This document shows positions 586 to 24,920 of a DNA stretch of 64,000 nt, one piece after another (position 1 is the first letter of the stretch; each line of letters starts with the position of its first letter). This DNA comes from a virus (taxonomy: Duplodnaviria; Caudoviricetes). Both the position numbers and the translations under genes were made by a program. The stretch is from positions 148,278 to 212,277 of the IMG/VR virus record IMGVR_UViG_3300028888_000053, one strand, 5' to 3'. The notes under the pieces were generated by a model. The model was given only the letters and a program-made list of their open reading frames with translations, was not told the DNA's origin and searched no databases.

Positions 586-1202
586 TAATATTTGGAGCTT
601 TTATGTGGGAAATTGAGAAATTAATCAAGAAGGGTGATTATATGTATGCTTTAGTACCTGAACACCCTCATGCTACTAAAAATGGTTACGTGTTACACCA
701 TCGAATTGTTGTAGAAAACCATATAGGTAGATTACTCAATGCTGATGAAGTTGTTCATCATAAAAACCATAATAAATTTGATAACAGAATTGAAAATCTC
801 GAAGTGTTGAATTATAAAGAGCATGTTAGAAAGCATAGCTTAGAACAGGGAAGGAAATGGGCTGTACTCAAATGCCCTATATGTGGAAAAGTGTTTGAGA
901 TGCCTTATAACAAAACTGTATATCAAAAATATCCTAACGATTCTAATAAAGCACAATGTTGTTGTAGAGCGTGTGGGTGTAAGTTAGGTAGATTGAAACA
1001 ACTGAACAGAATAACTCATGAAATGGAGATTGCTATATCGGGGAATCTCCTATCTGTATACAAAAAATATACAGAGGACAACCCCGAGGTAACCTTAGAT
1101 TAAGAGGGTACCGTAGAGACTATACGCAATCCGCCTGAAATGGCGAAGGGATAGTCCAGACTACAACATTTCATAATGGCTATAGTAATATAGAGTAGTA
1201 AG
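586..1202 (+). mobile_element. Group I intron in tRNA-Arg(UCU), inserted after U34, carrying an HNH ORF
   Basis: 5' exon ends in U and intron ends in G; P4 TCGGGG/CCCCGA, P3 GATTGC/GCAATC, P7 GACTA/TAGTC (GTAGAGACTATACG ... GATAGTCCAGAC). Confidence 0.9.
603..1103 (+). CDS. Intron-encoded HNH homing endonuclease with C-terminal Cys-rich domain
   Basis: HHRIVVENHIGR...VHHKNHNKFDNRIENL HNH motif; CPIC and CCRAC; lies inside the tRNA intron. Confidence 0.88.
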   Translation: MWEIEKLIKKGDYMYALVPEHPHATKNGYVLHHRIVVENHIGRLLNADEVVHHKNHNKFDNRIENLEVLNYKEHVRKHSLEQGRKWAVLKCPICGKVFEMPYNKTVYQKYPNDSNKAQCCCRACGCKLGRLKQLNRITHEMEIAISGNLLSVYKKYTEDNPEVTLD

Positions 1203-4954: not shown

Positions 4955-5103
4955 CTATTAACATTTTTAATATGGGATTATTTGGAAATGTAATTCGAGA
5001 AGTTAGAGATACAGTCAAAGATTCTTTAGAAGAATGTGGCTGTAAATCTGTAATATCAGAAGTCAAAGATGTTTTTAAAGCATTAATTGGCAAATAAAGT
5101 GTA

Positions 5104-5666
5104 GATTCCGTAGCTCAGTTGGTAGAGCACAGCACTTTAAACTAAAAGAAGAGTGCATAGGCGAGAAATCCCTATGTAGAATCTCCTAAATTCGGTGGAA
5201 ATCCTTAGCCTACTAGATACAATACTGTTATGGGATGGCTACAGTACATTAAACAATAATGTGTAAGGACTATACCGAGCGAAAATAGTATCTCAGATAA
5301 GTCTAATTAACTTATATCGTAAGAACTGAGCAGGCGTTAAAAGTAGAGCAAATCAGATATGTCTACATACTATAATCGTGTAGAGGCCAAACGGGAGATA
5401 TCTAAGTTGGAATTGTATTCCTCAATGGTAATGAGGTATCTAGCAATCGTACTAGGTAGGTGTTCAAATCACCAATACTCTTGCAAGAATTCCAATAAGA
5501 TAAAGAGATGGTCCAGATCACAACAGACACAAGTCTTTAGGCAACCTCTCTAAGAGCAGCATAAGACTATAGAGGTGATAGTGCAAGAATTCTAAAGTGT
5601 TTGGCTATGGTAACATAGTGTGATAGGTTAATGCTGGGGTCACGAGTTCGAATCTCGTCGGAATCA
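5104..5666 (+). tRNA. tRNA-Lys(UUU), split by a group I intron (exon 1 5104-5137, exon 2 5628-5666)
   Basis: Acceptor GATTCCG/CGGAATC, anticodon stem CAGCA/TGCTG, joined loop CTT|TTAA gives TTT, T-arm ACGAG-TTCGAAT-CTCGT. Confidence 0.92.
5138..5627 (+). mobile_element. Group I intron without endonuclease ORF in tRNA-Lys(UUU), after U34
   Basis: Guide GAGT pairs with exon ACTT (U.G at splice site); P4 TTCGGT/ACCGAG; P3 ATCTCC/GGAGAT; P7 GGCCA/TGGTC; terminal G 5627. Confidence 0.88.
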
Positions 5667-5693
5667 CTATTAACAATTTTTAATATAATTTTA

Positions 5694-5727
5694 CTTGAAA
5701 TTTGGTCAAAATAGTATTATATTTGCA
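5694..5727 (+). promoter_or_regulatory. Bacteroidota-type primary-sigma promoter
   Basis: TTG (5695-5697), 20 nt spacer, TATATTTG (5718-5725); matches TTTG-N19/21-TAnnTTTG. Confidence 0.7.
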
Positions 5728-5738
5728 ATCGGGATGAG

Positions 5739-5830
5739 GAAAGCAGCTCGTAGTTTGATTTGAATTAACAGTTTTTTTGCTTTTTTGTTTTCATATTGAT
5801 TCAAATTAAACCTATGAGCTGCTGTTTTTC
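5739..5830 (+). ncRNA. Candidate hairpin small RNA
   Basis: About 27 bp stem (5742-5768 with 5796-5823) whose mismatches are three G.U pairs plus one bulge; directly after a promoter; U-rich 3' end. Confidence 0.55.
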
Positions 5831-6628: not shown

Positions 6629-6963
6629 GCCTAGGTGATGAAAAGGTAAACATTCCAGACTTGCATGTAACTAATTTAATATCAGTTACTTAGAGTGCAT
6701 TTAATCGAAAGGTTTAATGTAGAATCTCGCTAACAAACAGAAACCTTGAATATGGTGACATATTCTTTGGCGATGGCTCACTAAATGGATATTATATCCT
6801 AAATGGCGTAGAGACTATATACGAGACACCTAAACGATAACGTATGGTGATGAAATAGTCCAGACTACAACATCTCAAGTTAGATGGCTTATTTAAAAGT
6901 AAGAGTAGTAAGAAAATCTGGTGGAACGTAGGTTCCTTGGGGGTTCGAGTCCCCTCCTGGGCA
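6629..6963 (+). tRNA. tRNA-Leu(UAA), split by a group I intron (exon 1 6629-6662, exon 2 6913-6963)
   Basis: Acceptor GCCTAGG/CCTGGGC + A73, anticodon stem CCAGA/TCTGG, loop CTT|AAAA gives TAA, long variable arm GGAAC..GTTCC, T-loop TTCGAGT. Confidence 0.92.
6663..6912 (+). mobile_element. Compact (250 nt) group I intron in tRNA-Leu(UAA), after U34
   Basis: GTAGAGACTATACG...ATAGTCCAGACTACAACAT...GAGTAGTAAG shared with the Arg intron; P4 looks degenerate. Confidence 0.85.
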
Positions 6964-8481: not shown

Positions 8482-9014
8482 TATTATGAACAGTAGAGTA
8501 TCTAGAAGAGTTAAGTTGTATCCTGAAAAGGGAAATGGTAAACATTCTGATTTTAACTTCCATAAAGAATATGGAAATTATCAGGAGACACCTGATCGTA
8601 TGACACCATCAGCTCATACGTTGTTGGTAAATCGTGCAAAAGCATTTCTTAAACATGCTGGTAGTAAAACTGTTAAACAATTGCATCTTGCAGTAGCATG
8701 AACCGAAAATCATTAAAATCCAAGTCAAAAAATCATTTGATTGGATTGATTTATGCTAAGACAGCAGAATCAAAGAAATGGTTGAAGTTATACAATCAAG
8801 CATCTAGCGAATATAATGCAGTACTTGAAAAGTATACTGATTATCGTAAAAAATTAAACGATAAAAAACGCAAAATACAATTGTTAGAGGAAGATATTGA
8901 TGATCTTAAAGCTGAAAAACGTAATCTTCTATCAAATAGTATTAACTACAAAGCTGGGTTCTACATAATGAGTATTGCAGCACTCATATTTTTAGCTATT
9001 ATTATATTTTAACT

Positions 9015-9047
9015 GTACTGGTGATCTGTTATGGGTCACCAGTATTT
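9015..9047 (+). terminator. Terminator-like hairpin
   Basis: GTACTGGTGATC/GGTCACCAGTAT inverted repeat just after the stop of 8698-9012. Confidence 0.55.
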
Positions 9048-10140
9048 AAATAATCAAATATGAAAAGAAAAGAAATAGATTTAGCACAATTGACTATTAG
9101 GTTTAATCATCTTCGTAGAATTAGTTTAGGAAAGAAATATTCCAATGAAGAGATGGTTAATTTATTAAAAGACGTAGGATTTGTTTATCCAACAATTGTC
9201 TTCATGTTTTTGAAGCAAGGAGGATTTATAGACAAATATAATGTTCAGAATAGAAAACTGAATATATTTACAAGTTTAGAAATTACTCCTACTCAGTTGG
9301 CTCAGACGATTGAAAAAGCTCGTCTTTATCAAAAAGCAGCTCAGCATCCAGAGCAAGTACAACCATCGCAATGGATTTCAGTAGAATCCTTTATGCAGAT
9401 ATTGGCTGAAAAACTTAAAAATGCTGGAGCAGCAAGAATTGGTATCATTAGAAGTGATATCGATATCAAAGCAGTATTAACTGCATGCGGCGTTAAAGCA
9501 CAAAAGATTCAATATTCATATCAGGATTTATAATCCTAAGCCTCTTGCTTATTCTCTTATGATGAAGTATAGTAATCATTGGTTAAGAATGAGATATTGA
9601 CAGTAGAAACTGTAATTTCTATCTTCCCACTTATAAGATAAAGTGGATATACTTATGATTAACTTTCGTGCATTGCAGAAGAATCTTAAGTGTCAGTATG
9701 TGAATGTCGTTCTTAAAGGTGAAAAGACACGTATCGAACTATCAATAGATCGTGGTGGTCGTATCATTGATTGTACACGCGTTGGTCGCTTGTTTGATCG
9801 TATCCAGGGACGTCAACTCTTGTCCGTAATGAATGGAGTCAATAACCAAGTAATTGAGGAGATCAATGACGAGGTCAATATCATTAATGGACTACATTTC
9901 ATCCCGACAATTTAAACTGCCGGATGAATTCGTTGTTAACGTGCGCTTATATAAAGATATAATTCTAAGAATTGATTTTATAAATTTTGGAAGAGGAAGA
10001 ACTCTACCAGAAGAGATTATTAAATCATTAGGACTAGACTTATATCATATAGCGCACGTTAAAGATCAAGTCAGGTTACACTTCTTTGAATGTGATTGTT
10101 CATATGATAAGAAGAATAAACTTATAGTTAAACATTAATG

Positions 10141-10170
10141 GGTCAGAGGAGTTTTTCTCCTCTGGCTTTC
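10141..10170 (+). terminator. Hairpin upstream of sigma factor gene
   Basis: GGTCAGAGGAG/CTCCTCTGGCT followed by a pyrimidine run. Confidence 0.55.
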
Positions 10171-10178
10171 TATTTATT

Positions 10179-10955
10179 ATGAGACAAATTAAATTTACAA
10201 ACGGTTTTTATACTAAAGGAGAGGAGTCTTTATTCCGTTATTTTACTGATGTAAGACATCTTTCTAAAAGTATCGAAGACAAGCCAGTAGAAGAAAGAAC
10301 TCCAGACGAGCTTATTAAAACACATTTAAAATTTGCTGTTTCGGTTGCAAAAAAGTATATGCATCTTGGTATTCCTGTTGAGGATTTGGTTCAAGATGCT
10401 AACATAGCGTTAATTAATGCAGCTCATAAATTTGATCCGAGTAAGGGATTTCAATTTACATCGTATTGTGTACTTGCAATTCGTCAGTATCTTATTGATG
10501 AAATAAGACGTAATAAGTCAGGTATCAAGTTTGGTGCTGATATGAGAAAAAAGATGAATGATTTACGTGAATTGTGTGATGACTTGACACAACGTGATGA
10601 GTATATGTATACAATTGACGAAATTAAATCATTATATCCCGAACTATTTACAGAAGGTTTATATCGTGCATTAAACTCTGAGAACCAAATACCATCAGAT
10701 AGTATAGATACTGATTTTGCAAGTGAGCCTGATAATGTTGATCAACATATTGATCAAGAATATATCAAGAAAAAATTGCATCAGCTATTACACATTCTTA
10801 CTCAGAAACAACAAGAAGTAATTAAAAAGTTGTATTTCGAAGAGAAAAGTATCGAAGTTGTTGCAGGTGAACTTAACTGTACAAGAGAAAATGTTCGTAT
10901 GACAAGAGAAAACGCATTACGAACATTAAGAAAACATAAACAATTTTTAATATGA
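10179..10955 (+). CDS. Sigma-70 family RNA polymerase sigma factor (divergent)
   Basis: Region 2 LKFAVSVAKKY...EDLVQDANIAL..AAHKFDPSKGFQFTSY; region 4 HTH VAGELNCTRENVR. Confidence 0.85.
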   Translation: MRQIKFTNGFYTKGEESLFRYFTDVRHLSKSIEDKPVEERTPDELIKTHLKFAVSVAKKYMHLGIPVEDLVQDANIALINAAHKFDPSKGFQFTSYCVLAIRQYLIDEIRRNKSGIKFGADMRKKMNDLRELCDDLTQRDEYMYTIDEIKSLYPELFTEGLYRALNSENQIPSDSIDTDFASEPDNVDQHIDQEYIKKKLHQLLHILTQKQQEVIKKLYFEEKSIEVVAGELNCTRENVRMTRENALRTLRKHKQFLI

Positions 10956-11849
10956 CAATTAAAGTTTTAACTTTTAGTCGTGCTTCTGGATTATCTGAGA
11001 TGGCATGTATAGAGAGTTCCGCTCAAGATGGATTTCAAATAAAAGATGCAATTAGAAGATTGGTCAATGATGATGAATTGATCCAGGAAGACGCTCCAGT
11101 AATAATTGGTACACATTCTTATGTTAGATTTATATCTGACAATTGGATTGTTACAGTAACAACGTAAGATTATGAAAGCAACAGAAATGGTTGATCAGTT
11201 ACTTCAGTTAATAGATCATCATGGCGATTTTGAAGTAGTTCCTCAGGACATTACAATGGAGCCTGATGAAGAAACTGGCGTTTTTGAAGATATTGCAAGT
11301 GTAGAATCTGTAGAATATGTGGAATTACCTATTGAAGAAGGAGTTTTTCCATGTTTTCTAATAAAAATTCAGTAATATGAAAATTTTTAAAAGGTATGAA
11401 TTTACTGGTCCTCAGGGTAAACGTTGGACCGAATGGTTTGAATTTGATACAGCCTTAACTGTTGACGAGGCAAACATGAAAATTGAGGAAGCTAAGAGTT
11501 TGAATGCGGGAAGAAATGAAGAATATGTAATACGATGATTAAGTTTGTTGTCATTATATCATTACTCATTTTCTTTGCACTTTTAGCATTAATTATTCAT
11601 TATTATGGTCGCCAATAGTGTATATGTTGTAAAAGTATGGGGTAAGTATGTAATGCAATTTACTCCTGCTTTTATAACATTAGATTTTGAGAAAGCATTA
11701 GATTATTACTCTAACTTTATCTTCAAACTGCGTAACGATCATCCTGAATTACAGGTTACCTCCGAAAAGAAAGATAGTTTGACTGGATATGTAGGTAATG
11801 ATTTCTTTAGTATTAAACTACAATCTTATCCACTTAATAAAGAATTAAT

Positions 11850-12515
11850 ATGAAATATCATGTAGGTGATGAAGTATATTTCCAATGTGGAGATAAAATT
11901 TATTCTGGACGTATAGAGATCGTAGATCGATATGGCGCTCTCGGATGTAGAGAAACTTCATATGATATTTATGTAGCATCACAAAATATGCTGTATAAAC
12001 ATGTTGAAGAAAGTTACGTTTTTACTGGTAAGCCGATTCATGTAGATAATATTATGGAAAGAGACTATAGAAAACTTATAAGAAATTTCAAACCTAGCAC
12101 TTATTGTAAGGGATGGGTTAAAAATGTAATCGTTGACAATAACACCACAATTTGTTACTATGAATTTAAGGTTAATGTTAACCTTATTATTCAAAACATT
12201 GGTTCATTCTCGCATTCTTACCTTATGAAGTTAGCGAAGCATTTTAATGCGCGTTTGTTAAATCCAAAAGGTGAGTTTCATTTTGTTACCGTAGGTAAAG
12301 CAAGATGTGCTGATACTGATACTTATGATAAACAAATAGGAGAGAAGATAGCTTTGGCTAGAGCTAAGTACAAAGCTAATAATATGGTGTTTTGTTTAAC
12401 AGAAAAGATACAAAGACATTTCTTTGAGGTTTCTACTAATATTACATCTTCTAAACTTGAATTAGAAGCCATGATGCGTGCTCAGCAAAAGTATATTAGT
12501 AAACTGACCAAATGA
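11850..12515 (+). CDS. Hypothetical phage protein
   Basis: 221 aa; C-terminal ARCADTDTYDKQIGEKIALARA motif, similar to one in 32695-33222. Confidence 0.55.
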   Translation: MKYHVGDEVYFQCGDKIYSGRIEIVDRYGALGCRETSYDIYVASQNMLYKHVEESYVFTGKPIHVDNIMERDYRKLIRNFKPSTYCKGWVKNVIVDNNTTICYYEFKVNVNLIIQNIGSFSHSYLMKLAKHFNARLLNPKGEFHFVTVGKARCADTDTYDKQIGEKIALARAKYKANNMVFCLTEKIQRHFFEVSTNITSSKLELEAMMRAQQKYISKLTK

Positions 12516-12930
12516 ACAATATTAAAATTACTTTGAATGTCATGGTGCCAGTGCAAACTTTAAATGAGATTGCACTAAGAACTACTGACTTTGAATCGTT
12601 TTTAAAAGACATTAAACACCTCTCTATTGATCAGTATTCTATTACTTATGATGTCATACATAAGAAAAGGATAAAGCGTTTTTATGACACATCTTCTCCT
12701 GTAAAATTAAGACGATTTATTCTTACTCGTATGGGATCTAATCCATATTATATCTTACCAAATAAGATATATGCTGGAGTATATACTATTACTGGTTTTA
12801 TTAGAGCTGATGATAATTTATATCTGAAGATAGAAATGCCAGAAGATACCGCTATTTCTTTTCATGATTTACAATTATCAGCAGATCAATGGACATTCTT
12901 TTTTGGACAAGTTAAACATGTATTTCCGTT

Positions 12931-13350
12931 ATGAGTATTATTAAATCATTCGAAAAAGCATCAGCTTTAAAGAAAGAACGAAAATGGGAATTTTTATATA
13001 TTCTTATTGATCTTCATGATACTGTTTTTAAAGCATGTTATTATGATCAAGAAACATTTGAATGGTTCCCATATGCAAAAGAAGCATTGCAGCTAATGTC
13101 TAAAAGACCAGATTTTAAATTAATTCTTTGGTCTTCTACATACTTTGAAAAACTAACAATGTATGATAGGATATTAGCAGAAAATGATATTCATATAGAT
13201 TATTTTAATATTAATCCTGAATGTCATAATACATTTCTTTCTGACTTTAGTCAAAAACTATACTTTAACGTTGGTATTGATGATAAGTTTGGATTTGATC
13301 CAGAAAAAGATTGGTATAAAATTTATGATTATTTATCTCATTTAACATGA
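12931..13350 (+). CDS. HAD-superfamily hydrolase
   Basis: IDLHDTV motif I, LILWSS, IDDK motif. Confidence 0.65.
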   Translation: MSIIKSFEKASALKKERKWEFLYILIDLHDTVFKACYYDQETFEWFPYAKEALQLMSKRPDFKLILWSSTYFEKLTMYDRILAENDIHIDYFNINPECHNTFLSDFSQKLYFNVGIDDKFGFDPEKDWYKIYDYLSHLT

Positions 13351-13913
13351 AAGTAGGAGTTATTCTTGCTCGGTTTCAGCCAATACATAATGGGCATATA
13401 GAATTAATAAAGTATGCTTTACACGGCAATGAAGTTGTGCATATCTTTATTGGTTCTGCCGATAAATTTAATGTTAGAAATCCAATTCCTATTCACGAAA
13501 GGAGACGTTTGGTAATAGCTTCTATCAAAGAAGTTTTTACTGATGAAGAAATGGATCGTATTTTTATTCATGAATTACCAGATTTGGATAGTGAAAGCAA
13601 TAATAGTATTGAATGGGGATTCTATCTGTATTCTCATATAGTACATGAAATTAAACAAGCTGAGTTTTCATTATACTATAGTGATGGATATGAGTTAGTA
13701 TCTTCATGGTTCCCTGGATTTATGTTTAAGGATTTTATATCATTAGTATTACTGGCTCGTAATTCATGTGTACACGGAGTAAGTGCCACACTAATAAGAG
13801 AAGCCATCATTAATGATGATGTTGAATTCTTACGCAAGAATGTTTCAGATATTGTATTTGAATCAAGAGAAGCGATTAAGAGGTATATTCAATTAAGTGA
13901 ATTAAGAAAATAA
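13347..13913 (+). CDS. nadM: NadM-type nicotinamide/nicotinate mononucleotide adenylyltransferase
   Basis: ARFQPIHNGH (HxGH), IGSA, RNP, SATLIR. Confidence 0.85.
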   Translation: MKVGVILARFQPIHNGHIELIKYALHGNEVVHIFIGSADKFNVRNPIPIHERRRLVIASIKEVFTDEEMDRIFIHELPDLDSESNNSIEWGFYLYSHIVHEIKQAEFSLYYSDGYELVSSWFPGFMFKDFISLVLLARNSCVHGVSATLIREAIINDDVEFLRKNVSDIVFESREAIKRYIQLSELRK

Positions 13914-13938
13914 CAATTAATAATTAATTAAACAAATT

Positions 13939-14694
13939 ATGAAAATAGCAGTAGTAGCTAAAGTTCGCAACGATTATTTTAATGGTTGCACAAGTATGGA
14001 AGAGGCATTGCGTAAAGTATGCCTGGATGAGAATGTAGTGTTTAATCTTACATGCAGCACTATCTCAAGATTAAATGATGAAGAGGACTTTGATTTTGAG
14101 AATCATGATCCTATTCGTAGTGATGATGAACACATTACAGTAACATTGATCTGGGATAATTTTGATCCTGATTCACATGAGACGACTGCTGCAAATGACG
14201 TTGAGTTTGCAGACGAGCTTCTTGCAGATTTTAGCAGTAGTTTCCGTTTTTCTAATGCCACGACAGAACGTGTTTCTCATGCTATTGGAAGCACTAACAA
14301 TCATGCGCAAGACGAAGGTGAAAACGCACAAGAGACTCCAATTCCAGAAGACGCACCTCGTCCAATGACTAGTGTATCGAATGATGGTATGCGTGCCACA
14401 ACTAATATTCCATCTTCTACTTTGACTGAAGATACACACACTGTGCAAACAGAAGCAGAGCATCCATCTGCCGCACACAACCAACGTCCAACACGTACAA
14501 TCACTTATGATGAGTTGATTGCCCGTCTTAATAATCTTCATGTACCTGGAAATACTCCTATCTATTTGAAGTATTATGAGGAAGGACAGCTTGTAGAGTA
14601 TGGTATGCCTACTGTAGAAGTTGTAACTCAGAATAGAACCAACATTGACAATGCTAATGAAGTCTTTACTGGTCCTCGTGTTGTAATTTATTAA
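13939..14694 (+). CDS. Hypothetical acidic protein with a low-complexity Thr/Pro/Glu linker
   Basis: 251 aa ORF, composition only. Confidence 0.55.
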   Translation: MKIAVVAKVRNDYFNGCTSMEEALRKVCLDENVVFNLTCSTISRLNDEEDFDFENHDPIRSDDEHITVTLIWDNFDPDSHETTAANDVEFADELLADFSSSFRFSNATTERVSHAIGSTNNHAQDEGENAQETPIPEDAPRPMTSVSNDGMRATTNIPSSTLTEDTHTVQTEAEHPSAAHNQRPTRTITYDELIARLNNLHVPGNTPIYLKYYEEGQLVEYGMPTVEVVTQNRTNIDNANEVFTGPRVVIY

Positions 14695-14709
14695 TTGTAT
14701 TAACTTTTA

Positions 14710-14781
14710 GTCTAACGTAGCTTAATGGGAAAGCGCTGGATTTTACCGGTAGATCTAAGTTCGAATCTTAGCGTTAGACCA
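14710..14781 (+). ncRNA. tRNA-like RNA with His-like body and shortened anticodon arm
   Basis: 8-bp GTCTAACG/CGTTAGAC acceptor (G-1:C73-like), D-arm GCTT/AAGC, perfect T-arm CTAAG-TTCGAAT-CTTAG; 6-nt loop ATTTTA. Confidence 0.7.
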
Positions 14782-16689
14782 TAACAAAAAATATATATAA
14801 TCATGAAAATAGAATTAGAAATTGAAATTCCAAAACGTGAAATTAATTATCTTATAGATCATGTTGTTGATAGTTATGAAGATCCAAATATGGACGATGT
14901 CGAATCGGATCTTTTATATCAACTTGAATTAAAATTAAAGAAAGGAGAATTATCATTTTCCTTATCGCCAGATACTTTTGAAGAGTTAAAAACAATCTTT
15001 GATGATATTATGGATCATCAGTCACGATGAGATATAAGAAGTTAATACCAGCCAAAGAAGCCAACTTGTTAGTAAAACGACCACTAAAATTACAAGGAGC
15101 ATTAAGATTTTTTAATCGAATGATAATCCAAGCAAGTCTTAGTGGTTGTTATGAATTATATATGTCACCCAATTATGAAAATATTATTAAGAAAAAGAGG
15201 TATTATTATAAACTGGATGATAGAGAAACAAGTATTGTATTTGATTGGGTCAAAATGGATTACTATGAACTTCAATTGCAAAAGAATGGCTATTATGTAG
15301 ATTACGATTGGATACGACAGATATTTATTATTAAATGGAGACTTTAATTTAAGTAATATGAATATAGGAAGTTTTATTTATATTATAACGGTTTTAGTAT
15401 CGTTATACTTGGTGTTTCTTCTTAATTTTCGTTCTTATAAAGACGGTGAGAAGAGACCTACAAACGCAGCGTTAGTATTAACAGGAATTGTATTAAGTTT
15501 TATTCCAATTTTTAATATATTCCTTTCTATAGTACACGTTCTCGAGCTTCGAAAGTACATTGTTAAATCAATATTTACAAAATGACATTTTCTGAAGCTG
15601 AACAAATATTAAAAACATTACCACTGAATGGTGAACAAAGTGAAGCATTAGACTTTTTACTGAGTATAGCAGCCGTCAAAAATGAAAAGGACTGTTATGG
15701 AATAGAAAACGTTAACTTTTCTATATGTAAAAATACTGATGCAAACTGGAAACGCTATCAACAACAAAGGATTAGTCAGGGATTTGATGAGACTGAGTGT
15801 TGGAACTTAGATTCTACAATTTGTCAATTTATTTATCCTCGATTAATTTACTTTAAAGAAAATCATTGTGGATGTCCTCAAGAACTTACTGATCAGGAAT
15901 GGAATGATATATTGGATAAGATGATTTTATTCTGTGAGAAGTATCCAGAAGACGATGATTATGATCAAGAAGGTATACAGTTAATGTGGAAATACTTTAA
16001 TGATTTATGGTGGTAAGAATTAAATTAATTGTAATTATTGTTCTCACTCTTTTCTTTATAATCACAACATGTTTTATCATGTTTACAAATGCTGTGCAAG
16101 AGCAAAAAGGCGCAACAAGAGATTCGACCTTTATTACTATTGGCAAACATGAGTATTTTCTAATGCATTCCCAAAATTGTAAAGAAAGAGATTTAAAAAA
16201 TAGATATCAATGAAGTTAATACTTATTAACTATACCAATAAGGATGATATACGATTTATTATAAAAGATAAAAGTGAAATTGTTCTTAGTGGTATGTTTA
16301 AGTTTGATACAGAAGCATTGATAATCTTTCACGCAAACATAAAAACTATAGATGAAGCAATCGAAGTTCATAGTATATTGCAAAAGCATGACTGGTATAC
16401 TAATCATATAGTTTATTCTAGGCAATCACATAAAGTTGCAAAACTGTTTAAAAAAGCATTAAAAAGAATTAGAAATGAAACTAAGACGATCTCAGAAATC
16501 TATTATTCATCAGAGACAAGAATACAACCAGAAGATTCTTGACTTGTTGAAAGCTTATCTTGATGCTTATCCACAATTGAGGTTTGGTCAAGCTTTGGTG
16601 AATATGAATATCATTGAAGATGTTCAAAATGGATTTGCAAAAGATCCCTTCAATGATGAACCAATAGATATTTTTAATAGATTACGCAT

Positions 16690-17322
16690 ATGAACTATCA
16701 GATAAAAAAATATTCAATTAATAGTATTTCTATTACTGAAAATTTACATTTAAATCAAGAAACTTGTTTCTATAAATTTAATGAGTTTATAGAAAACAAT
16801 GTTTCTTATGCTACCTATGTTTGTGTTCTGCCATATTCTAAGAAAGATTATTATGCCATGAATCGATTTGATCGATCATTCATTTATGTCATACTTCCAA
16901 CACAAGAAATGATTGTTGTATTCAAAGATTATCATTTTCTGAATGAGGAACCACCTTTGATTCACAGTCCATTTATTTTTGATACAATGTATTTGGAATG
17001 TGGAAGAAGTGTAAATGGTGTATATGAAACAAAAGAAATGTATAAACTAATCGAATTTACTGGATATGGATTTGATGTTATTAAAGTAACATTTAAAGAT
17101 CCGTTAACTGATCAGGAAATTCCAAGTATTAGTAGAGAAATTATTGATCTTCCAACACTATTTAGAGATCAGAAGGGGATTGATATTTTCGAAGCAGATG
17201 CTTTGTGTACTGATTTTATGGAACAACATATGTTCGATTATTTTTATAATTTTGTATTATCTTTAATTAATTATGAACAGAAAGAAAGCGGAACCAATAG
17301 CGATACAGAGGAAGTCGATTAG
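16690..17322 (+). CDS. Hypothetical protein (ends in TAG)
   Basis: 210 aa ORF. Confidence 0.55.
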   Translation: MNYQIKKYSINSISITENLHLNQETCFYKFNEFIENNVSYATYVCVLPYSKKDYYAMNRFDRSFIYVILPTQEMIVVFKDYHFLNEEPPLIHSPFIFDTMYLECGRSVNGVYETKEMYKLIEFTGYGFDVIKVTFKDPLTDQEIPSISREIIDLPTLFRDQKGIDIFEADALCTDFMEQHMFDYFYNFVLSLINYEQKESGTNSDTEEVD

Positions 17323-17481
17323 TAAATATGATCCAGACACAGAATGCAAAAGAATATGCAAGAATTGTTCGTTGTGGATTTATTGTAAGACTTCTGGTGC
17401 TGATCCTGATGAAGAGGATAATCTTTGTTTTACTCTAGAATAGTTGATCTAAATCAAAAAAGTGTTTTATAATTTGATTTT

Positions 17482-17874
17482 ATGACAATAGATAGTTATA
17501 ATTGTATTTCAATTGTAGTTAGTATTATACTTGGCATATGTATTGGTGCAGAAAGACAAATACATAAACACAATGCTGGTATTAGAACATTTACATTGAT
17601 TTGTCTTGGATCAACTCTAGCAATGATTCTATCTGATTCTTTTTCTGATAGTGATCCAAGTCGAATTGCTGCACAAGTTGTATCAGGAATTAGTTTCCTT
17701 GGTGCTGGCATTATTATGCATAGTAAAGATCGTGTGTATGGTCTTACAACGGCAGCTTGTACTTGGATTACATCTATTGTTGGATTAACTGTTGGACATG
17801 GTATGTATATAGAAGCTACTTTTGTAACTTTTATTATGATATCATTATTATCTATATTAAGTCGATGGAAATAG
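17482..17874 (+). CDS. mgtC: MgtC/SapB family membrane protein
   Basis: IGAERQ...AGIRTFTLICLGS...DPSRIAAQVVSGISFLGAG...GLTTAA..W. Confidence 0.9.
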   Translation: MTIDSYNCISIVVSIILGICIGAERQIHKHNAGIRTFTLICLGSTLAMILSDSFSDSDPSRIAAQVVSGISFLGAGIIMHSKDRVYGLTTAACTWITSIVGLTVGHGMYIEATFVTFIMISLLSILSRWK

Positions 17875-18504
17875 AGTATTGTATAACAAGGGATGAAGAT
17901 GGAGAATTGAAGCTTCAAGAGAAGACTGATATATATCCATTTAAAGTTGAACCAGATAATTTTTGGATAGGTAACCACGTTCGATTAGATCCTGACTTAT
18001 TCCCAGAAATTAGATGGGGAGACGATCCAAAACAAGTTAAAATAAATGTCACTATTAGCGTACCTACAGATCAGATTCAGGAAGAACAACCATCCGAAAT
18101 ACCATAAATATCAGGAGATGTGGATACAGAATCTGACACAGAATCAAATTGATTATTTTATTAAAGAAGCAAAACATTTGGGTTATGAGATATGAAAAAT
18201 GTATCCTAGTCCCATTCCCTGATTACTAGGAATTTGTTTCTTAGACATACAATAATAAAAGGTTTAAGACAGTTGCTAGGTATTTAGAAAAGGAAGATTT
18301 GTATCTTCTACCAGAAGATTGGGCAAATGGAGTAATGAAAAAATTATATGGCTACGAATTATAAAACTAAATATATACGTTTGGGATGGCCAGAATATCA
18401 AGATTATATGGGTCATAAAGACTTTTATGAAGAGTCTGGATATGATCCAGTACTTGATTATTACTATATTCCTGAATATATTATAGAAGAAGTAGATAAA
18501 AACA

Positions 18505-18972
18505 ATGAAAGTAATATTTCTTGATTTTGATGGCGTAATAACTACATATGTATCTTCTTGGACATTAGTTCCAGAAAAAATGGATCTTGTTAAAAAGATT
18601 ATAGATGCAACTGGAGCTAAAATTGTTATTAGCTCCGCTTGGAGAAGGAAAACACTAGAAGATACATTTAGGTTTATTACTGATCCGAATAATCATTATG
18701 TTGGTAGTAATCCATTTAGTCTATGTGAATATGTAGTAGGACAAACTGATCGACTTTATAGTGAAAATCGATTTAGCGGACATGTTAGACGAGGAGATGA
18801 AATCCAAAAATGGATTAATGAACATGATGTAGAAAATTATATTATCCTCGATGATGAAGATGACTTTTTATTGAATCAGTATACCCATTTTGTCCATACT
18901 AATTTGGAAATCGGTATTACTCAAGACGACGTAGATAAAGCAATAGAAATTTTATCAAACGAAACATTATGA
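18505..18972 (+). CDS. HAD phosphatase (Swiss-army-knife RNA repair type)
   Basis: FLDFDGV, IVISSAWR, RGDEIQKW, YIILDD. Confidence 0.8.
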   Translation: MKVIFLDFDGVITTYVSSWTLVPEKMDLVKKIIDATGAKIVISSAWRRKTLEDTFRFITDPNNHYVGSNPFSLCEYVVGQTDRLYSENRFSGHVRRGDEIQKWINEHDVENYIILDDEDDFLLNQYTHFVHTNLEIGITQDDVDKAIEILSNETL

Positions 18973-19415
18973 AATATTTTACAATTAAGGAATTATGTTA
19001 TTCTGAAACAGCTTAGAAGTTAGGGATTAAGAATGAACCTACGGAAGAAATAAAAAATCATTTAAGTGAATTAATCATTAAAATACTAGATCCATTACGA
19101 GAAGCTTGGGGAAGTGGTATTAGAGTGACTTCTGGATATAGAGGTCCAGCTTTAAATAAAGCTGTTAAAGGTAGTAATACAAGCGCTCATTGCACAGGTT
19201 ATGCTGCTGATCTTGTACCAATTAATGGATAGATGACTAAATTCAAAACGTTTGTTAAGAATTGGTTGAAATCTTCTGGCGTTATGTGGGATTAGTATAT
19301 TAATGAATTCTCTGGAAATTCAGAGTGGGTACATATTGGATTAAAAAATAGATCAGGCAAACAACGTAAACAATTTTTACTATATAAAAATGGTAAATAT
19401 TCTTATATTAATTAA
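18969..19415 (+). CDS. Peptidase M15-family endolysin, 148 aa, with three in-frame TAG codons read as Gln
   Basis: Missing from the ORF track; reads MKYFTIKEL...LDPLREAWG..IRVTSGYR..ALNKAVKGSNTSAH..GYAADL...WD*YINE...WVHIG; TAG at 19014, 19230, 19293; TAA stop at 19413. Confidence 0.9.
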
Positions 19416-19417
19416 TT

Positions 19418-19990
19418 ATGGATTTATTAATTGCAACGCATAATTCTGCAACGGGAGAAAAGCCGAAGTCTATTTGGTCGTGGTTACTTACTCCTTTTGC
19501 AAAGTGTCAAAGTAAGACAATTAAAGAGCAATATGATGCTGGTTGTCGTATGTTTGACCTTAGGGTGAGGTGGGATAAGATGTCATGGCGATGTGCTCAT
19601 GGTTTATGGATGAGTAAAAAGACTGTTCCAGAAATCCTTCATGTTATTGATAGCTTTCCAGAACATTGTTATGTATTAATTACATATGAAGGAAAACTAA
19701 AGGATAAGGAGGATAGAGAAGATTTTATTATCTTTTGTAAATGGTGTCGTTCATCTTTTAAAAACATCTACTTTGGTAGTGCGGCAGCTAAGTATAGTGA
19801 TAAGGATACAAAGGTAGATTGGATTGAAGTGTTAGCTCCAGTGAAGACACATGCTTCTAAGAAAGGATTTCTTCCACTGGATGGCAAACATTGGCAAACC
19901 TATTTGCCAATTCCTTGGTTGTGGAATCAATTGTATACAAAGAATCATAAATTTGATTCGGAAACATTTACATTTGTTGATTTTTTATAA
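19418..19990 (+). CDS. PI-PLC-like phosphodiesterase
   Basis: ATHNS...CQSKTIKEQYDAGCRMFDLRV...AHG. Confidence 0.75.
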   Translation: MDLLIATHNSATGEKPKSIWSWLLTPFAKCQSKTIKEQYDAGCRMFDLRVRWDKMSWRCAHGLWMSKKTVPEILHVIDSFPEHCYVLITYEGKLKDKEDREDFIIFCKWCRSSFKNIYFGSAAAKYSDKDTKVDWIEVLAPVKTHASKKGFLPLDGKHWQTYLPIPWLWNQLYTKNHKFDSETFTFVDFL

Positions 19991-20414
19991 TGAAATGGCG
20001 TGCAGTGATGTAGATATGTTTAAAGCAGTTAATGAATTTCTAAAGTCAATTGGAATTGATATTGATAAATTGTCATGATTCTCACAAAGGAAAATATTGA
20101 AGAATGCAATATAAAATCTGTACAAGACAATAAAGAATTATTGATTGCGTTATTAGCTGATTTAGAGACGATTAATGAAGCTATTCCAAGACGCACATTC
20201 TTTATTGAAGTACAAGATTTTCACGATGAATATAGTCCTGAAAGAGTCGATCCTTGTCCCGACTATTACGGCATGTTCATTATTAGTGACGATGATGGAA
20301 AAACTTATGGAGAATGGCTTGACATTGATAGCCTCAATTGTCAAATGTCATTCTTCTATGAGTTAGTTGTTGATGAATAATTTTTAGATCATTTTATTAT
20401 TAATTTTAAACTGT

Positions 20415-20597
20415 ATGATTATGAAAAGACTCGCAATTGTATTTGCCCTTTTTCTGATCGCATGCTTTAGCTCATGTGGAAATTGTGCAAAGACATGTGA
20501 CGTTGAGAATGATTCTACAGCTGTTGACACAACCGTTGTTGATACCGTTAATGTTGACTCTGTTGTTGTTGACAGTACTGTAGTTGACACTCTCTAA
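20415..20597 (+). CDS. Small secreted protein or lipoprotein with tandem D(S/T)x repeats
   Basis: Signal peptide with Cys (FSSC), then DSTAVDTTVVDTVNVDSVVVDSTVVDTL. Confidence 0.7.
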   Translation: MIMKRLAIVFALFLIACFSSCGNCAKTCDVENDSTAVDTTVVDTVNVDSVVVDSTVVDTL

Positions 20598-20641
20598 TTT
20601 GCAGTTAAAGCTTCCAGCAAATCAAAACGGAAGCTTATCAA

Positions 20642-20714
20642 TGGAGGTTAGTATAATTGGTTAGTACATTGGATTTTGGTTCCAATAGTTCTGATTCGAG
20701 TTCAGAACCTCCAA
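20642..20714 (+). tRNA. tRNA-Gln(UUG), intronless
   Basis: Acceptor TGGAGGT/ACCTCCA (U1-A72), anticodon stem TTGGA/TCCAA, loop TTTTGGT. Confidence 0.9.
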
Positions 20715-20746
20715 CAAAGTAATAACAAGTTTAAACTTATTTATTT

Positions 20747-20929
20747 ATGAAGTACTTTTTAATGATTTTGGCATTGTTGTGCCTTTCTGGATGTGGTTCA
20801 TATATTGAAATAGAACCATTTCCAGTTTACACGAGGCATTATTATTACGCGCCTCCGCCCAGAGTTTATCATCATGGTCCGCCTTTGATTATTCATCCGA
20901 GGCCAAGACCACCGTATCATCGATATTAA
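20747..20929 (+). CDS. Small Pro/His/Tyr-rich lipoprotein
   Basis: LSGC lipobox; PPPRVYHHGPP tail. Confidence 0.6.
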   Translation: MKYFLMILALLCLSGCGSYIEIEPFPVYTRHYYYAPPPRVYHHGPPLIIHPRPRPPYHRY

Positions 20930-20934
20930 TAACC

Positions 20935-20963
20935 AAGGCTGCATTCGAAAGAGTGTGGCCTTT
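20935..20963 (+). terminator. Terminator-like hairpin
   Basis: AAGGCTGCATTC-GAAA-GAGTGTGGCCTT. Confidence 0.55.
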
Positions 20964-21372
20964 AATTGTATTATAACATATGAAAAAGAAAAGTAAAATT
21001 GATTTAGAGACTTGTAAGTATATTAAAAAACATAAAAAAGCAACTAATAGTACTGCTGTATCAGTTGTAAATAACAATTATTGTTATGACGATGATGACG
21101 ACGATGATGCATACACTGCTTATTGGCAGCGCTTTGGTCTTGTTTATTAATATTATGGGTAAACATAGGAATCGAACACAACGAATAGAAATTTTCCATA
21201 CCAATGAATTAGAATTGGATAAAGATAAATTTGTTCTTGTGCATGAAAAAGAAGGACAATATTGTATTCTTAATATTACAGGCGATAATAAAATTATGAT
21301 TCGTCGCCTTAAACATAAAGATGACAATGTTGCGAGAGAACGTATTACTGAGCTTTTAGAACTGTTACAAAA

Positions 21373-21882
21373 ATGAAAAAAGTTTTAATTTTAATCGATC
21401 TACAAAATGATTTTATTACTGGTAGTCTTGGTTCTGTTGAAGCGCAATCTATCATTCCTAATGTAATACAGTTTATTAAAAACTGGAACGAAGAAATTAT
21501 CGTTACAAAGGATACTCACGACCAAAAATATCTTGATACCCTTGAAGGACAATATCTTCCAGTTAAACATTGTATTACTGGCACTGATGGATTTGAATTA
21601 GATTATCGTATTCAAGAGGCATTACAAGACAAGCACCCACAAATCATTTATAAACATACATTCGGTTCTACTGGCCTTATGAATATGTTTGATAATGCTA
21701 CTGAATTTTATATTTGTGGATTGTGTACTGACATTTGTGTTGTTGTAAACGCATTGTTGTTGAGAACTAAATATCCTAACAATAAAATCTTTTGTATTGA
21801 AAATTGTTGTGCAGGGTCTAGTCCAGAAAATCATTTGTCTGCTCTAGAAGTAATGAAATCTTGTCAAATAGAAATTGTATAA
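21373..21882 (+). CDS. pncA: Nicotinamidase (isochorismatase family)
   Basis: IDLQNDF, TKDTH, HCITGT, KHTF, GLCTDICV. Confidence 0.85.
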   Translation: MKKVLILIDLQNDFITGSLGSVEAQSIIPNVIQFIKNWNEEIIVTKDTHDQKYLDTLEGQYLPVKHCITGTDGFELDYRIQEALQDKHPQIIYKHTFGSTGLMNMFDNATEFYICGLCTDICVVVNALLLRTKYPNNKIFCIENCCAGSSPENHLSALEVMKSCQIEIV

Positions 21883-22317
21883 TATGGAATTAAAAAGTAG
21901 ATCACAACGTGTACCTATGATTGGTAGTGGTTACCACTTTTGGAGAGATGGAATTCCCACAGAGAATGGACATTGGACTTTTAAATGTAAGCAATTATTA
22001 AAGCTTGAAGACGCTAAAGTAATTCTGATATCTCATCCTGTTATTAATGATAATGGAGAAAAAGTATATCAAAAAGATTCATTGTTAACCATCTGGGAAG
22101 AAGCACGTAAAGAACAGGAAGAATTAAGTGATATAACTGACTATATAGCATTATGCTATAGTGAGGAATACACTCCAAATAATACTCAATTCTTTGCGAG
22201 AGGAAAAGATACCCGTTGGTATATGATTTCCATCTCCTCTCCATGGGATAGTGGTATACTTGATGTTGGAAATGAATTATATCATCAATATGTAATGGAC
22301 AATCAACCTCGTTAAAT

Positions 22318-23484
22318 ATGATAGCATCTATTTTAGACACAGACCTTTATAAGTTTTCTACTTCATATGCGTATATGAAGTTATATCCCAATGCAGTAGG
22401 AACTTTCGCATTTCACGATCGTGACAACACGCAATATACTGATGAGTTTCTTGCTCAATTAAAACTTGAGTTTGCAAAACTTGGAATGCTTTCCTTATCT
22501 ACACAAGAAAAATGTAAAGCTGATTCTGTAATTAGATATATTCCTACAGTTTATTGGGAGTGGTTGTCTGGTTTCCATTTCCTTCCAACAAAAATAAATG
22601 CATGGTTGGATAGTGAAAAACATCTACACATTGAAGTAACTGATCTTTTGTATAAGGTAACACTTTACGAAGTACCTATTCTAGCAATTGTATCTGAACT
22701 TAGAAATAAATTCCTCGGAAATAATATTGTTTCTATGAACGACGTAGTCAATAGACTCGATACAAAGATAAATATTGCTAATGAGTATAAACTGAAATTT
22801 AGTGAGTTTGGAACAAGAAGAAGATTCTCATATGCTGTTCATGAGGAAATTATCAAAGAACTAAAAGAAAAGTGCCCAATATATTGTGTTGGTACTTCTA
22901 ACGTTCATTTTGCTTTGAAATATGATATGATACCAGTTGGAACATTTCCACATGAATGGATTATGTTTCATGGTGCTATATTTGGATATCGAGAAGCAAA
23001 CTTCCTTGGAATGAGAGATTGGGTTCGAGTGTATGATGGTGATCTTGGTATATTTCTAATGGATACTTATACATCTAAGATCGGTCTTAATAGTATGTCA
23101 TTAAAGTACGCTAAACTATTTGATGGCGTTAGACAGGATTCTGGTGATGAATATCAAATAGGTAATATGGTTATTGATCATTACAAGAAACTGAATATTG
23201 ATCCAACGACAAAGACCATTGTATTTAGTAATGCTTTAACTTTTGATAAGTATAAAGATATTGTTGAATATTTTAGAGGAAGAATTAGAGTCTCCGCTGG
23301 TATTGGTACTAATCTTACTAATGATTGTGGTTTCCAACCATCCAATATTGTCATGAAACTGAAATATGTTTCTCTTGATGAAAATCAACCAAAGAGAAAA
23401 TGTATTAAGATTAGTGATGATCTTGGTAAGCATATGGGTGATGATCAAGAATTTGAAATAGCAAAATATCAATTGGGTATATGA
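22318..23484 (+). CDS. pncB: Nicotinate phosphoribosyltransferase
   Basis: LDTDLYK, EFGTRRRFS, GTSNV, GTFPHEW, RQDSGD, GIGTNLT, NIVMKL, KISDD. Confidence 0.93.
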   Translation: MIASILDTDLYKFSTSYAYMKLYPNAVGTFAFHDRDNTQYTDEFLAQLKLEFAKLGMLSLSTQEKCKADSVIRYIPTVYWEWLSGFHFLPTKINAWLDSEKHLHIEVTDLLYKVTLYEVPILAIVSELRNKFLGNNIVSMNDVVNRLDTKINIANEYKLKFSEFGTRRRFSYAVHEEIIKELKEKCPIYCVGTSNVHFALKYDMIPVGTFPHEWIMFHGAIFGYREANFLGMRDWVRVYDGDLGIFLMDTYTSKIGLNSMSLKYAKLFDGVRQDSGDEYQIGNMVIDHYKKLNIDPTTKTIVFSNALTFDKYKDIVEYFRGRIRVSAGIGTNLTNDCGFQPSNIVMKLKYVSLDENQPKRKCIKISDDLGKHMGDDQEFEIAKYQLGI

Positions 23485-23668
23485 TTACATATTTGTTGTG
23501 TGGAGTCTTCTTTGCTATTTTGATGGATTTATGTACAAAAGATTTTGATATTACTCTTCCTGAACTGGAAAAAGAAACATCGCCTTTTGTCGCAGGATTT
23601 TTTACCCACTCTGTAACAATTCTTGCTTGGCCTGCATTTGTACTATTAATAATAATTCTAATTTTGAA

Positions 23669-24169
23669 ATGATAGGAAGAATTGAGAAAAATTTTAGTTA
23701 TACTATTCCTGATGGACCTCATGCAGGACGAACATTATGGAGTGGTAGATACTGTTGTATTGTTGGCATTATCATTAAAATAGTAAATGGTGAGTATTAC
23801 ATCCTAGCTAATCAACGAGGTAGTGGTACTCCAGATTTTCAAGGATTTTGGAATTGTCCATGTGGTTTTCTTGAAGGTAATGAATCTGCTGAACAAGGAG
23901 TAGCACGAGAAGTGTTTGAAGAAACAGGTGTTATTGTTGATCCCAAAAACCTACGTTTACATTCTGTTCAAAGTGATCCAAAAGTTTGTAACAATGGTAA
24001 TGTAACACTCCGATACTTCTGTTATGATTATCATTATAATGAAACAGAAAGAAGTGGAGGAGAAGAGAATGAGGTTGCTGATGTTAAGTGGATTCATGCC
24101 AAAGACATCAATAATTATCAGTGGGCTTTTAATCATGATGAATTAATTAAAATGTTTATCGATGACTGA
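23669..24169 (+). CDS. Nudix hydrolase, ADP-ribose pyrophosphatase-like
   Basis: Nudix box GFLEGNESAEQGVAREVFEETG; C-terminal WAFNH; sits between pncB and nadE. Confidence 0.85.
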   Translation: MIGRIEKNFSYTIPDGPHAGRTLWSGRYCCIVGIIIKIVNGEYYILANQRGSGTPDFQGFWNCPCGFLEGNESAEQGVAREVFEETGVIVDPKNLRLHSVQSDPKVCNNGNVTLRYFCYDYHYNETERSGGEENEVADVKWIHAKDINNYQWAFNHDELIKMFIDD

Positions 24170-24920
24170 ATATACTTTTAATGCTGAACGAATTACAGCA
24201 GAATGTGTAGAATGGATTAAATCCTGGTTCTATAAGAATGGAAGGGATTGTAATGCATATCTTGGATTGTCTGGAGGTAAAGATAGTACTATATGTGCTG
24301 CTTTACTAGCTAGAGCACTTGGTAAAGAAAGAGTATATGGTATTTCTATGCCTAATACTATGCAAGATGAGAATGATGCAGATAAAATCGCAGCGTTTCT
24401 TGGTATTAATTATCAGTGTGTCCATATAGATAAAATCTACAATGAATTTACTAAATTGGGTATCAGTAATTATGCACAAACTAATGTTCCTCCTAGAATT
24501 AGAATGACTATGTTATATGCATTAAGTCAGTCTAATAATGGTAGAACTTGTGAAACGGGGAACTTAAGCGAAAACATGCTGTTCTATTTTACAACAGGAG
24601 GTGATAATCTGTGTGATTTTTCACCGCTTGGTAAGCTTACTGTAACCGAGATTAAGCAAATGGGATATGTTCTAGGATTACCTGCTAAGTGGATTGAAAA
24701 GATTCCAGATGATGGACTTCCAAATTCTGAACCTGATGAAAAGAAACTTGGTATTAAATATGCTGATCTTGATCAGTATATTCGTACTGGTGAGCTTGAA
24801 GATAAGCAGGAGCTAGAAAGAATTTTTGAAATTCATAATCGTTCTTTGTTTAAAGAGGGCTTAATTAATGTGCCAACTTATGATCCTTTAATTCGTAATT
24901 ATTTTATAAAAACAAGATGA
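24162..24920 (+). CDS. nadE: Ammonia-dependent NAD+ synthetase
   Basis: GLSGGKDS, RIRMTMLY, TGNLSE, PLGKL, DEKKLG; no glutaminase domain. Confidence 0.9.
   Translation: MTEYTFNAERITAECVEWIKSWFYKNGRDCNAYLGLSGGKDSTICAALLARALGKERVYGISMPNTMQDENDADKIAAFLGINYQCVHIDKIYNEFTKLGISNYAQTNVPPRIRMTMLYALSQSNNGRTCETGNLSENMLFYFTTGGDNLCDFSPLGKLTVTEIKQMGYVLGLPAKWIEKIPDDGLPNSEPDEKKLGIKYADLDQYIRTGELEDKQELERIFEIHNRSLFKEGLINVPTYDPLIRNYFIKTR

Follow-up and report, generated by a model that had tools for sequence, protein, structure and literature searches.

A probable mobile group I intron in a phage tRNA-Arg(UCU) gene, with an HNH endonuclease reading frame that runs through the ribozyme core

Group I introns of the IC3 type are found in cellular tRNA genes such as those for cyanobacterial tRNA-Leu(UAA), Azoarcus tRNA-Ile and Agrobacterium tRNA-Arg, where they are small, have no ORF and sit in the anticodon loop with a short P1 that uses about three exon bases. 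A single endonuclease of a tRNA intron has been characterised, a PD-(D/E)XK enzyme from a cyanobacterial tRNA-fMet intron (PMC3073962, Table 1), and the first-pass annotation of the locus described here had given this enzyme as PD-(D/E)XK and not HNH, in agreement with that table. As for phages, a 2014 review of bacterial group I introns recorded that all phage introns then known lay in protein-coding genes, despite the many tRNA genes that phages carry (PMC3984707); in our own literature search, which did not reach most subscription journals and is no proof of absence, group I introns of phage tRNA genes are nowhere described.

That the reading frame of an intron can run into its ribozyme core is established. 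Edgell and colleagues list overlaps of up to 81 nt and coined the term "core creep" for the process in which loss of a stop codon extends the ORF into the core; in the td intron of phage T4, translation interferes with splicing (PMC3073962). At the locus described here it is probable that a mobile, IC3-like group I intron occupies the anticodon loop of a phage tRNA-Arg(UCU) gene and carries the gene for an I-HmuI-like HNH homing endonuclease, and that the part of the ORF which overlaps the core encodes working protein as far as residue ~155.

The split tRNA gene and the fold of its intron

The window, by which we mean the whole 64,000-nt stretch of DNA that was analysed, is the final 64 kb of a single 212,277-bp phage-like contig (G+C 31%), and the sequencing runs that contain this phage are sheep and cattle gut or rumen metagenomes. 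Positions are those of the window unless a contig is named, and its three split tRNA genes, with their introns, helices and reading frame, all lie on the + strand. A split-tRNA scan identified a tRNA-Arg(UCU) gene at 551-1241 that is interrupted between tRNA positions 34 and 35. The 5' exon (551-585) holds the acceptor, the D arm, the 5' strand of the anticodon stem and loop positions 32-34 (CUU), the 3' exon (1203-1241) holds loop positions 35-38 (CUAA), the 3' strand of the anticodon stem, the variable loop, the T arm and the acceptor, and when joined the two give the anticodon loop CUUCUAA, that of Arg-UCU. ARAGORN in intron mode (-i) reported a tRNA-Arg(tct) with a 617-nt intron in the same place, and the intron (586-1202), which ends in G1202 as omega-G, is supported by covariation among 11 homologs; the boundaries first proposed for the intron and for the ORF that it contains (603-1103) were exact. 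The Bacteroidota-type promoter motif TAnnTTTG shows no enrichment across the genome (322 observed against 315 expected) and none precedes the tRNA gene.

Searches of the window with Rfam, at the gathering cut-off and at E values up to 10, left the Arg intron and the tRNA-Leu intron described below unmatched as group I. We read this as a limit of sensitivity that does not count against the group I assignment, in the Arg intron presumably due to its 407-nt P2 loop, and comparison of homologs was used instead. A search pattern based on the R and S elements common to the Arg and Leu introns of the window recovered 112 viral stretches and 61 MAG contigs; where both halves of the host gene could be traced in the viral stretches, the majority proved to be tRNA genes. 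ORF-less relatives with the same R/S core do exceed the cut-off of 50 for Rfam Intron_gpI (RF00028), L108 with 65.5 bits and L078 with 54.3 bits. Distinct introns in tRNA-Arg(UCU) genes number 11, ten with an ORF and one without.

A structure running from P1 to P9.1 was written onto an alignment (A1) of these 11 introns and its pairs were counted. Pairing is found in 94.2% of cells, against 36-45% in controls in which the partners were slid by 1-3 columns, and changes on both sides are seen in 27 of 60 pairs, the observed covariation being reached by 0 of 500 shuffles. Compensatory changes occur in each of P2, P3, P4, P5, P6, P8, P9 and P9.1, and P7 is invariant. By these counts the 11 introns have the P3-P8 helices of a group I core together with the P3/P7 pseudoknot. 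We take the intron of the window to be putatively IC3-like from its resemblance to the Azoarcus and cyanobacterial tRNA introns, and its place in the anticodon loop is the same as the U34/A35 insertion site of the Leu-type IC3 introns.

P1 (583-597) joins C583-U584-U585 and U586 to G594-G595-A596-G597, with U585.G595 at the splice site; it is 3-4 bp long and its exon side never varies, so that its support is that of conservation alone. Both the U585.G595 pair and the terminal G1202 are kept in 11 of 11 homologs. The 5' strand of P2 (599-607), within which lies the ATG at 603-605, pairs with 1015-1023, with compensatory changes at five of nine pairs. Three helices whose 5' strands lie inside the ORF follow, namely P3 (1026-1033 with 1126-1132; paired 96%, compensatory 4/7), P4 (1039-1043 with 1082-1086; paired 98%, compensatory 2/5) and P5 (1048-1051 with 1075-1078; paired 95.5%, compensatory 2/4), the last of which lies wholly in the ORF, as does a P5a hairpin (1054-1060 with 1068-1074) proposed on the basis of sequence only. 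The P6 hairpin (1088-1095 with 1105-1112; paired 90%, compensatory 4/7) has the stop codon of the ORF, TAA at 1101-1103, in its loop. P7 (1116-1123 with 1151-1157), formed by the R and S elements with A1117 bulged, is paired in 100% and encloses both the 3' strand of P3 and P8 (1133-1135 with 1142-1144; paired 100%, compensatory 2/3). Compensatory changes also support P9.0 (1160-1164 with 1195-1199), which closes the two hairpins P9 (1167-1178) and P9.1 (1180-1193, with a GNRA loop). The pairings that the first-pass annotation had drawn for P3 (GATTGC 1028-1033 with GCAATC 1126-1131) and for P4 (CGGGG 1039-1043 with CCCCG 1082-1086) are thus borne out by compensatory changes among the 11 introns.

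Four public runs were compared with the Arg locus, as assembled contigs that cannot show tRNA-sized products. The sole RNA library that contains the phage has a contig identical to the unspliced gene over 446-1240, whose source could be either precursor RNA or DNA that was carried over; the contigs of that library include no true spliced junction. There was also no empty site among the DNA runs compared. The only joint close to the splice sites, from 582 to 1203 with TTC between, was rejected as a spliced product, as it reads as a different, intronless tRNA-Arg(CCU).

Some variation was seen around the intron family and the tRNA genes of this phage group. In two Arg introns (L096:6009-6669 and L117:1413-2083; A1 columns 10-64) the distance from the splice site to the GGAGC motif is longer by 45-55 nt, owing to a P1-loop insertion absent from the other Arg introns. 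The 61 MAG contigs with the intron core (L250-L310; isolate genomes gave none) are mostly labelled Bacteroidales or Prevotellaceae, with one assigned to Methanobrevibacter; they probably represent phage contigs that were put into the bins of their hosts, and give a weak hint of what those hosts are. RNAs above Rfam cut-offs lie within large tRNA arrays on viral contigs that had been fetched for the intron, including a tmRNA (L019:6451-6796), a permuted tmRNA (L015:3067-3353) and a "cow-rumen-4" RNA (L103:1886-1948). A tRNA-like gene at 14711-14780 of the window (Rfam tRNA, 50.7 bits) has a shortened anticodon loop for which ARAGORN names no anticodon and gives "tt". Upstream of the window in the same genome, ARAGORN in intron mode reports a tRNA-Leu(taa) with a 69-nt intron (C1:131873-132017), too short for a group I ribozyme, and ~6.9 kb before the window start it reports a tRNA with anticodon CUA, an amber-suppressor type (C1:141380-141453). 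A relative of the HNH gene of the window (P0063, on L240) is translatable only with TAG read as Q. Stop codons may be recoded in the phage group to which the window belongs; the HNH ORF of the window itself has no internal stops and ends in TAA.

The HNH protein and its overlap with the ribozyme core

The ORF at 603-1103, 166 codons from ATG to TAA, starts 17 nt into the intron, as had been read before, and the phage genome has one copy of it. It matches Pfam HNH_3 (39.3 bits, cut-off 24.8, E 4.9e-10) and several PHROG HNH families (best E 5e-17), and has at least 410 database homologs of 148-216 residues at E <= 1e-5; it is therefore not a chance reading frame. In an alignment of 34 homologs H53, N65 and H74 and the four cysteines C91, C94, C120 and C124 are invariant, and by analogy the first three would be the catalytic His-Asn-His residues. 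An AlphaFold model made on this alignment has a mean pLDDT of 90.8, is confident to ~155 and consists of an N-terminal beta-hairpin and HNH part (1-82), a zinc ribbon on the four cysteines, a helix and a strand (139-155) and a disordered tail (159-166). Residues 1-82 superpose on I-HmuI (1u3e_M), a nicking homing endonuclease, with Z 7.6 and an rmsd of 2.8 A over 76 residues at 22% identity, well above the next row, and the best Foldseek match is likewise 1u3e (E 0.03); a sequence search of solved structures gave weak zinc-finger matches only. The ORF is accordingly predicted to encode an I-HmuI-like HNH endonuclease with a zinc ribbon. Its closest relatives, which come from independent contigs, share 73-92% identity over the full length. 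Searching deposited phage genomes with positions 500-1300 by blastn found no related intron; three Staphylococcus phages gave the sole match, 156 nt of 69% identity inside the part that codes for the HNH protein.

The ORF fills the loop of P2, with its AUG within the 5' strand of that helix, and codons 138-141 cover the 3' strand. Codons 142-166 then run through P3, J3/4, P4, J4/5, P5, P5a, P5', P4' and the 5' strand of P6 to the stop in L6, so that ~90 bases are shared by the protein code and the folded RNA. The first-pass annotation had called the core DNA dual-coding, a claim that would fail if the core could fold without the segment that overlaps the ORF. As the 5' strands of P3, P4, P5 and P6 are all coding, the core cannot form without it, and the overlap is even larger than was claimed, taking in the P2 strands, P5, P5a and the 5' strand of P6 too.

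What this shared segment means for the protein can be read in two ways, of which one is that the endonuclease ends before P3 and that everything from ~142 onwards is functionless read-through, conserved via the RNA. The homologs do show the signs of core creep, as their stop codons vary in position and lie inside core elements (L6, J6/7 with the TAG of the R element, L8 with TGA, P7' and P9) and protein lengths range over 148-216 aa. Downstream of P6 two frames are used, and the peptide "motifs" found there are translated conserved RNA. This scatter is as PMC3073962 predicts, and the disorder of residues 159-166 points the same way. The A-I-S triplet, whose codons span the last part of P3, J3/4 and the beginning of P4, is invariant where the ribozyme is present and has drifted in free-standing relatives. 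Against read-through as the whole account, those free-standing relatives, which have no ribozyme, retain the motif N-h-x-x-h-Y-x-K and stop ~5 residues after it, one of them encodes the serine with AGT instead of TCG, and the model has a confident helix at 139-146 and strand at 149-155, although that confidence is possibly inflated, as RNA constraint keeps those alignment columns conserved. On balance we regard functionless read-through from ~142 as unlikely. Because residues to ~155 are kept where the ribozyme is absent, the overlap seems to be constrained both as RNA and as protein over ~50 nt, with the last 8-10 codons a tail. The codon positions of the intron-borne genes speak for dual constraint too, as third positions have the lowest conservation in the ORF-only part (0.66) but no longer do so in the overlap (0.81). 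On the reading that we favour, the residues encoded by P3-P5 would be a functional part of the protein under both kinds of selection, and the last 8-10 residues would be only a read-through tail.

The start of the ORF is likewise embedded in RNA structure. A GGAGC at 594-598 is present in 11 of 11 introns (10 of 11 in MAFFT columns), 5 nt ahead of the AUG. Because its GAG pairs with the exon CUU, which never varies, it is the internal guide sequence. The phage shows no enrichment of Shine-Dalgarno sequences, which precede 3.6% of gene starts against a background of 4.8%, and the guide role therefore explains the conservation of GGAG better, although in other hosts a ribosome-binding site could have the same spacing to its AUG. 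In L110, where the start codon is GTG, the 3' strand of P2 has a compensating CAC. Once P1 and P2 had formed, the start site would be buried, so that the enzyme would seldom be made, or would come mostly from intron RNA that is unfolded or excised, and the same burial would keep ribosomes off the core. A bolder version, which we put forward tentatively and think somewhat less than even in its chances, is a two-way switch in which ribosomes land on the guide GGAG itself and P2 locks up the AUG, so that translation would come only from the excised intron after splicing, with the P3-P5 strands also encoding the helix and strand that the enzyme needs. If this were true, ~50 nt would be under simultaneous selection for RNA catalysis and for protein function, and the intron-borne and ribozyme-free members of the family would form a natural series that separates the two constraints.

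Target site, mobility and the companion introns

The homologs of the HNH protein are tied to one tRNA. Within the 112 viral stretches, strong homologs occur at 13 distinct loci, all of them tRNA-Arg(UCU) introns, and a further locus fetched additionally (L119/L120) is again a tRNA-Arg(UCU) intron with a homolog. A search for homologous pairs of intron and ORF had been suggested, and these are such pairs. In every context examined the gene lies in a tRNA-Arg(UCU) intron or else immediately precedes a tRNA-Arg(UCU) gene that has no intron, consistent with the earlier proposal that the enzyme may target intronless tRNA-Arg genes. The view that endonuclease ORFs are rare in tRNA introns does not hold for phage metagenomes, given the 410 homologs and the other HNH types found in Leu and Lys introns.

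The ribozyme-free genes are P0118 (L121:1400-2053), P0055 (L241:205-760), P0017 (L242:300-911), P0016 (L245:340-967) and P0063 (L240:801-1370), each directly upstream of a whole intronless tRNA-Arg(UCU), which was identified by ARAGORN in the first four and by eye on L240. At three of these loci (L121, L242 and L245) the HNH gene is preceded by the remnant of a 5' tRNA half, and it looks as though the intron core was lost and the endonuclease stayed beside its target gene. P0017 is 72% identical to the protein of the window and nested in its clade, and its DNA keeps degraded P3-P5 strands. In its lineage an intron-borne ancestor lost the ribozyme but retained this stretch of the protein. With 118 homologs the protein tree is so poorly resolved that it can be neither rooted nor used for counting transitions; its one well-supported nesting is that of the ribozyme-free clade P0015-P0017 within the window clade. 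Beside one of the pairs of free-standing HNH gene and tRNA-Arg, ARAGORN also reports a tRNA with a four-base anticodon (aaaa) at L245:997-1072.

All the states that a homing cycle predicts are found, that is occupied sites (the 13 loci), an ORF-less one (L034, an ORF-deleted Arg intron that retains the first ~14 codons) and empty ones (more than 117 viral contigs with an intronless tRNA-Arg(UCU) of the same anticodon arm), though not within near-identical genomes. From this family pattern we infer that the intron is mobile. The RNA would splice itself out to leave a working tRNA-Arg, and in a mixed infection the enzyme would nick or cut, close to the anticodon-loop site, those tRNA-Arg(UCU) genes of other phages that have no intron, with repair of the cut gene copying the intron in. 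An intron that has become fixed, with an ORF that no longer homes and is either inactive or kept as a splicing helper, is a rather improbable alternative. It would account for the loss of ORFs from both companion introns of the window and for the deletion in L034, and a closely related phage with an empty site was found neither by a search with the downstream glycosyltransferase nor by BLAST of the flanks against all fetched loci. The ORF is however intact, with all its catalytic and zinc-binding residues present, and is preserved over its full length in the close relatives from independent contigs. We know of no HNH enzyme that acts as a maturase, which also counts against this alternative.

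The companions are two ORF-less group I introns at the same insertion site, one (5138-5627) in a tRNA-Lys(UUU) gene at 5104-5666 found by the split-tRNA scan, and one (6663-6912) in a tRNA-Leu(UAA) gene at 6629-6963 found by ARAGORN. The Lys intron matches Rfam Intron_gpI with 29.4 bits, below the cut-off (E 4.5e-5), and the 3' half of the Leu intron is close to that of the Arg intron. That one enzyme serves all three introns, with tRNA-Lys(UUU) and tRNA-Leu(UAA) genes that have no intron among its substrates, is less probable still, and the proposed mobilisation of the companions in trans is not supported: all three introns do lie between positions 34 and 35 after the same CUU, and a manual count finds 17 of 28 bases in common between the Arg and Lys target sites, but the HNH lineage is found only with tRNA-Arg(UCU), and the Leu and Lys introns of other phages that bear ORFs encode proteins of a different build, with an N-terminal helix-turn-helix and a C-terminal HNH.

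RNA related to the Lys intron was conspicuous in one sample. In a sheep-gut RNA run compared over 5001-5750 of the window, contigs that match the Lys intron have a summed depth of ~8,700-26,000 against 2-6 for the neighbouring phage genes, with many alternative joints in the peripheral loops. RNAs of Lys-related introns, or of the tRNA-like insert at 5407-5495, appear to be abundant in that sample, where their source is probably many organisms.

Comparison with known systems

The HNH/intron family of which this locus of a rumen phage is a member is a large and apparently undescribed one of phages. Hundreds of relatives in rumen and gut phages would make phage tRNA genes a major home of mobile group I introns, one that standard annotation has missed, and the HNH enzyme would join the single characterised tRNA-intron endonuclease as a candidate for a family that recognises the sequence of a tRNA anticodon arm in DNA. 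The double use of ribozyme core and protein code is unusually extensive, and as it comes with many natural variants, some of them ribozyme-free, the interplay of translation, splicing and core creep is directly testable.

The tRNA-fMet intron of Synechocystis PCC 6803 with I-Ssp6803I (Bonocora and Shub 2001; PMC3073962) is likewise a group I intron of the anticodon loop with its own endonuclease, and its ORF also lies near the 5' end (P1/P2), where the overlap is 61 nt. It differs in the PD-(D/E)XK enzyme, the bacterial host, the tRNA and in an overlap confined to P1/P2, whereas that of the window extends over P3-P6 also. The DNA polymerase intron of the Bacillus phage SPO1, which encodes I-HmuI (PDB 1U3E), has in common with the window a phage group I intron and an HNH enzyme, on which residues 1-82 of the window protein superpose (Z 7.6); unlike the window intron it interrupts a protein-coding gene and has its ORF in P8 with a 9-nt overlap (PMC3073962, Table 1), and the C-terminal DNA-binding part of I-HmuI differs, the window enzyme having a zinc ribbon.

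The td intron of phage T4 with I-TevI also has the 3' end of its ORF in core helices and its ribosome-binding site sequestered in RNA structure (PMC3073962), but the enzyme is of the GIY-YIG family, the ORF is in P6 with a 20-nt overlap and the host gene encodes a protein. SegB of T4, a free-standing homing endonuclease in a phage tRNA cluster, is similar to the free-standing relatives of the window HNH beside an intronless tRNA-Arg(UCU), but it is GIY-YIG and was never intron-borne (PMC2330249). A mobile group I intron with a homing endonuclease, the overlap of ORF and core and a sequestered start were therefore all known already. What is new here is the phage tRNA gene as host, the HNH enzyme in a tRNA intron, an overlap that takes in the whole P4-P6 domain with strands of P2 and P3 and goes further in relatives, and the evidence of dual constraint, accompanied by derivatives without a ribozyme that form a natural series.
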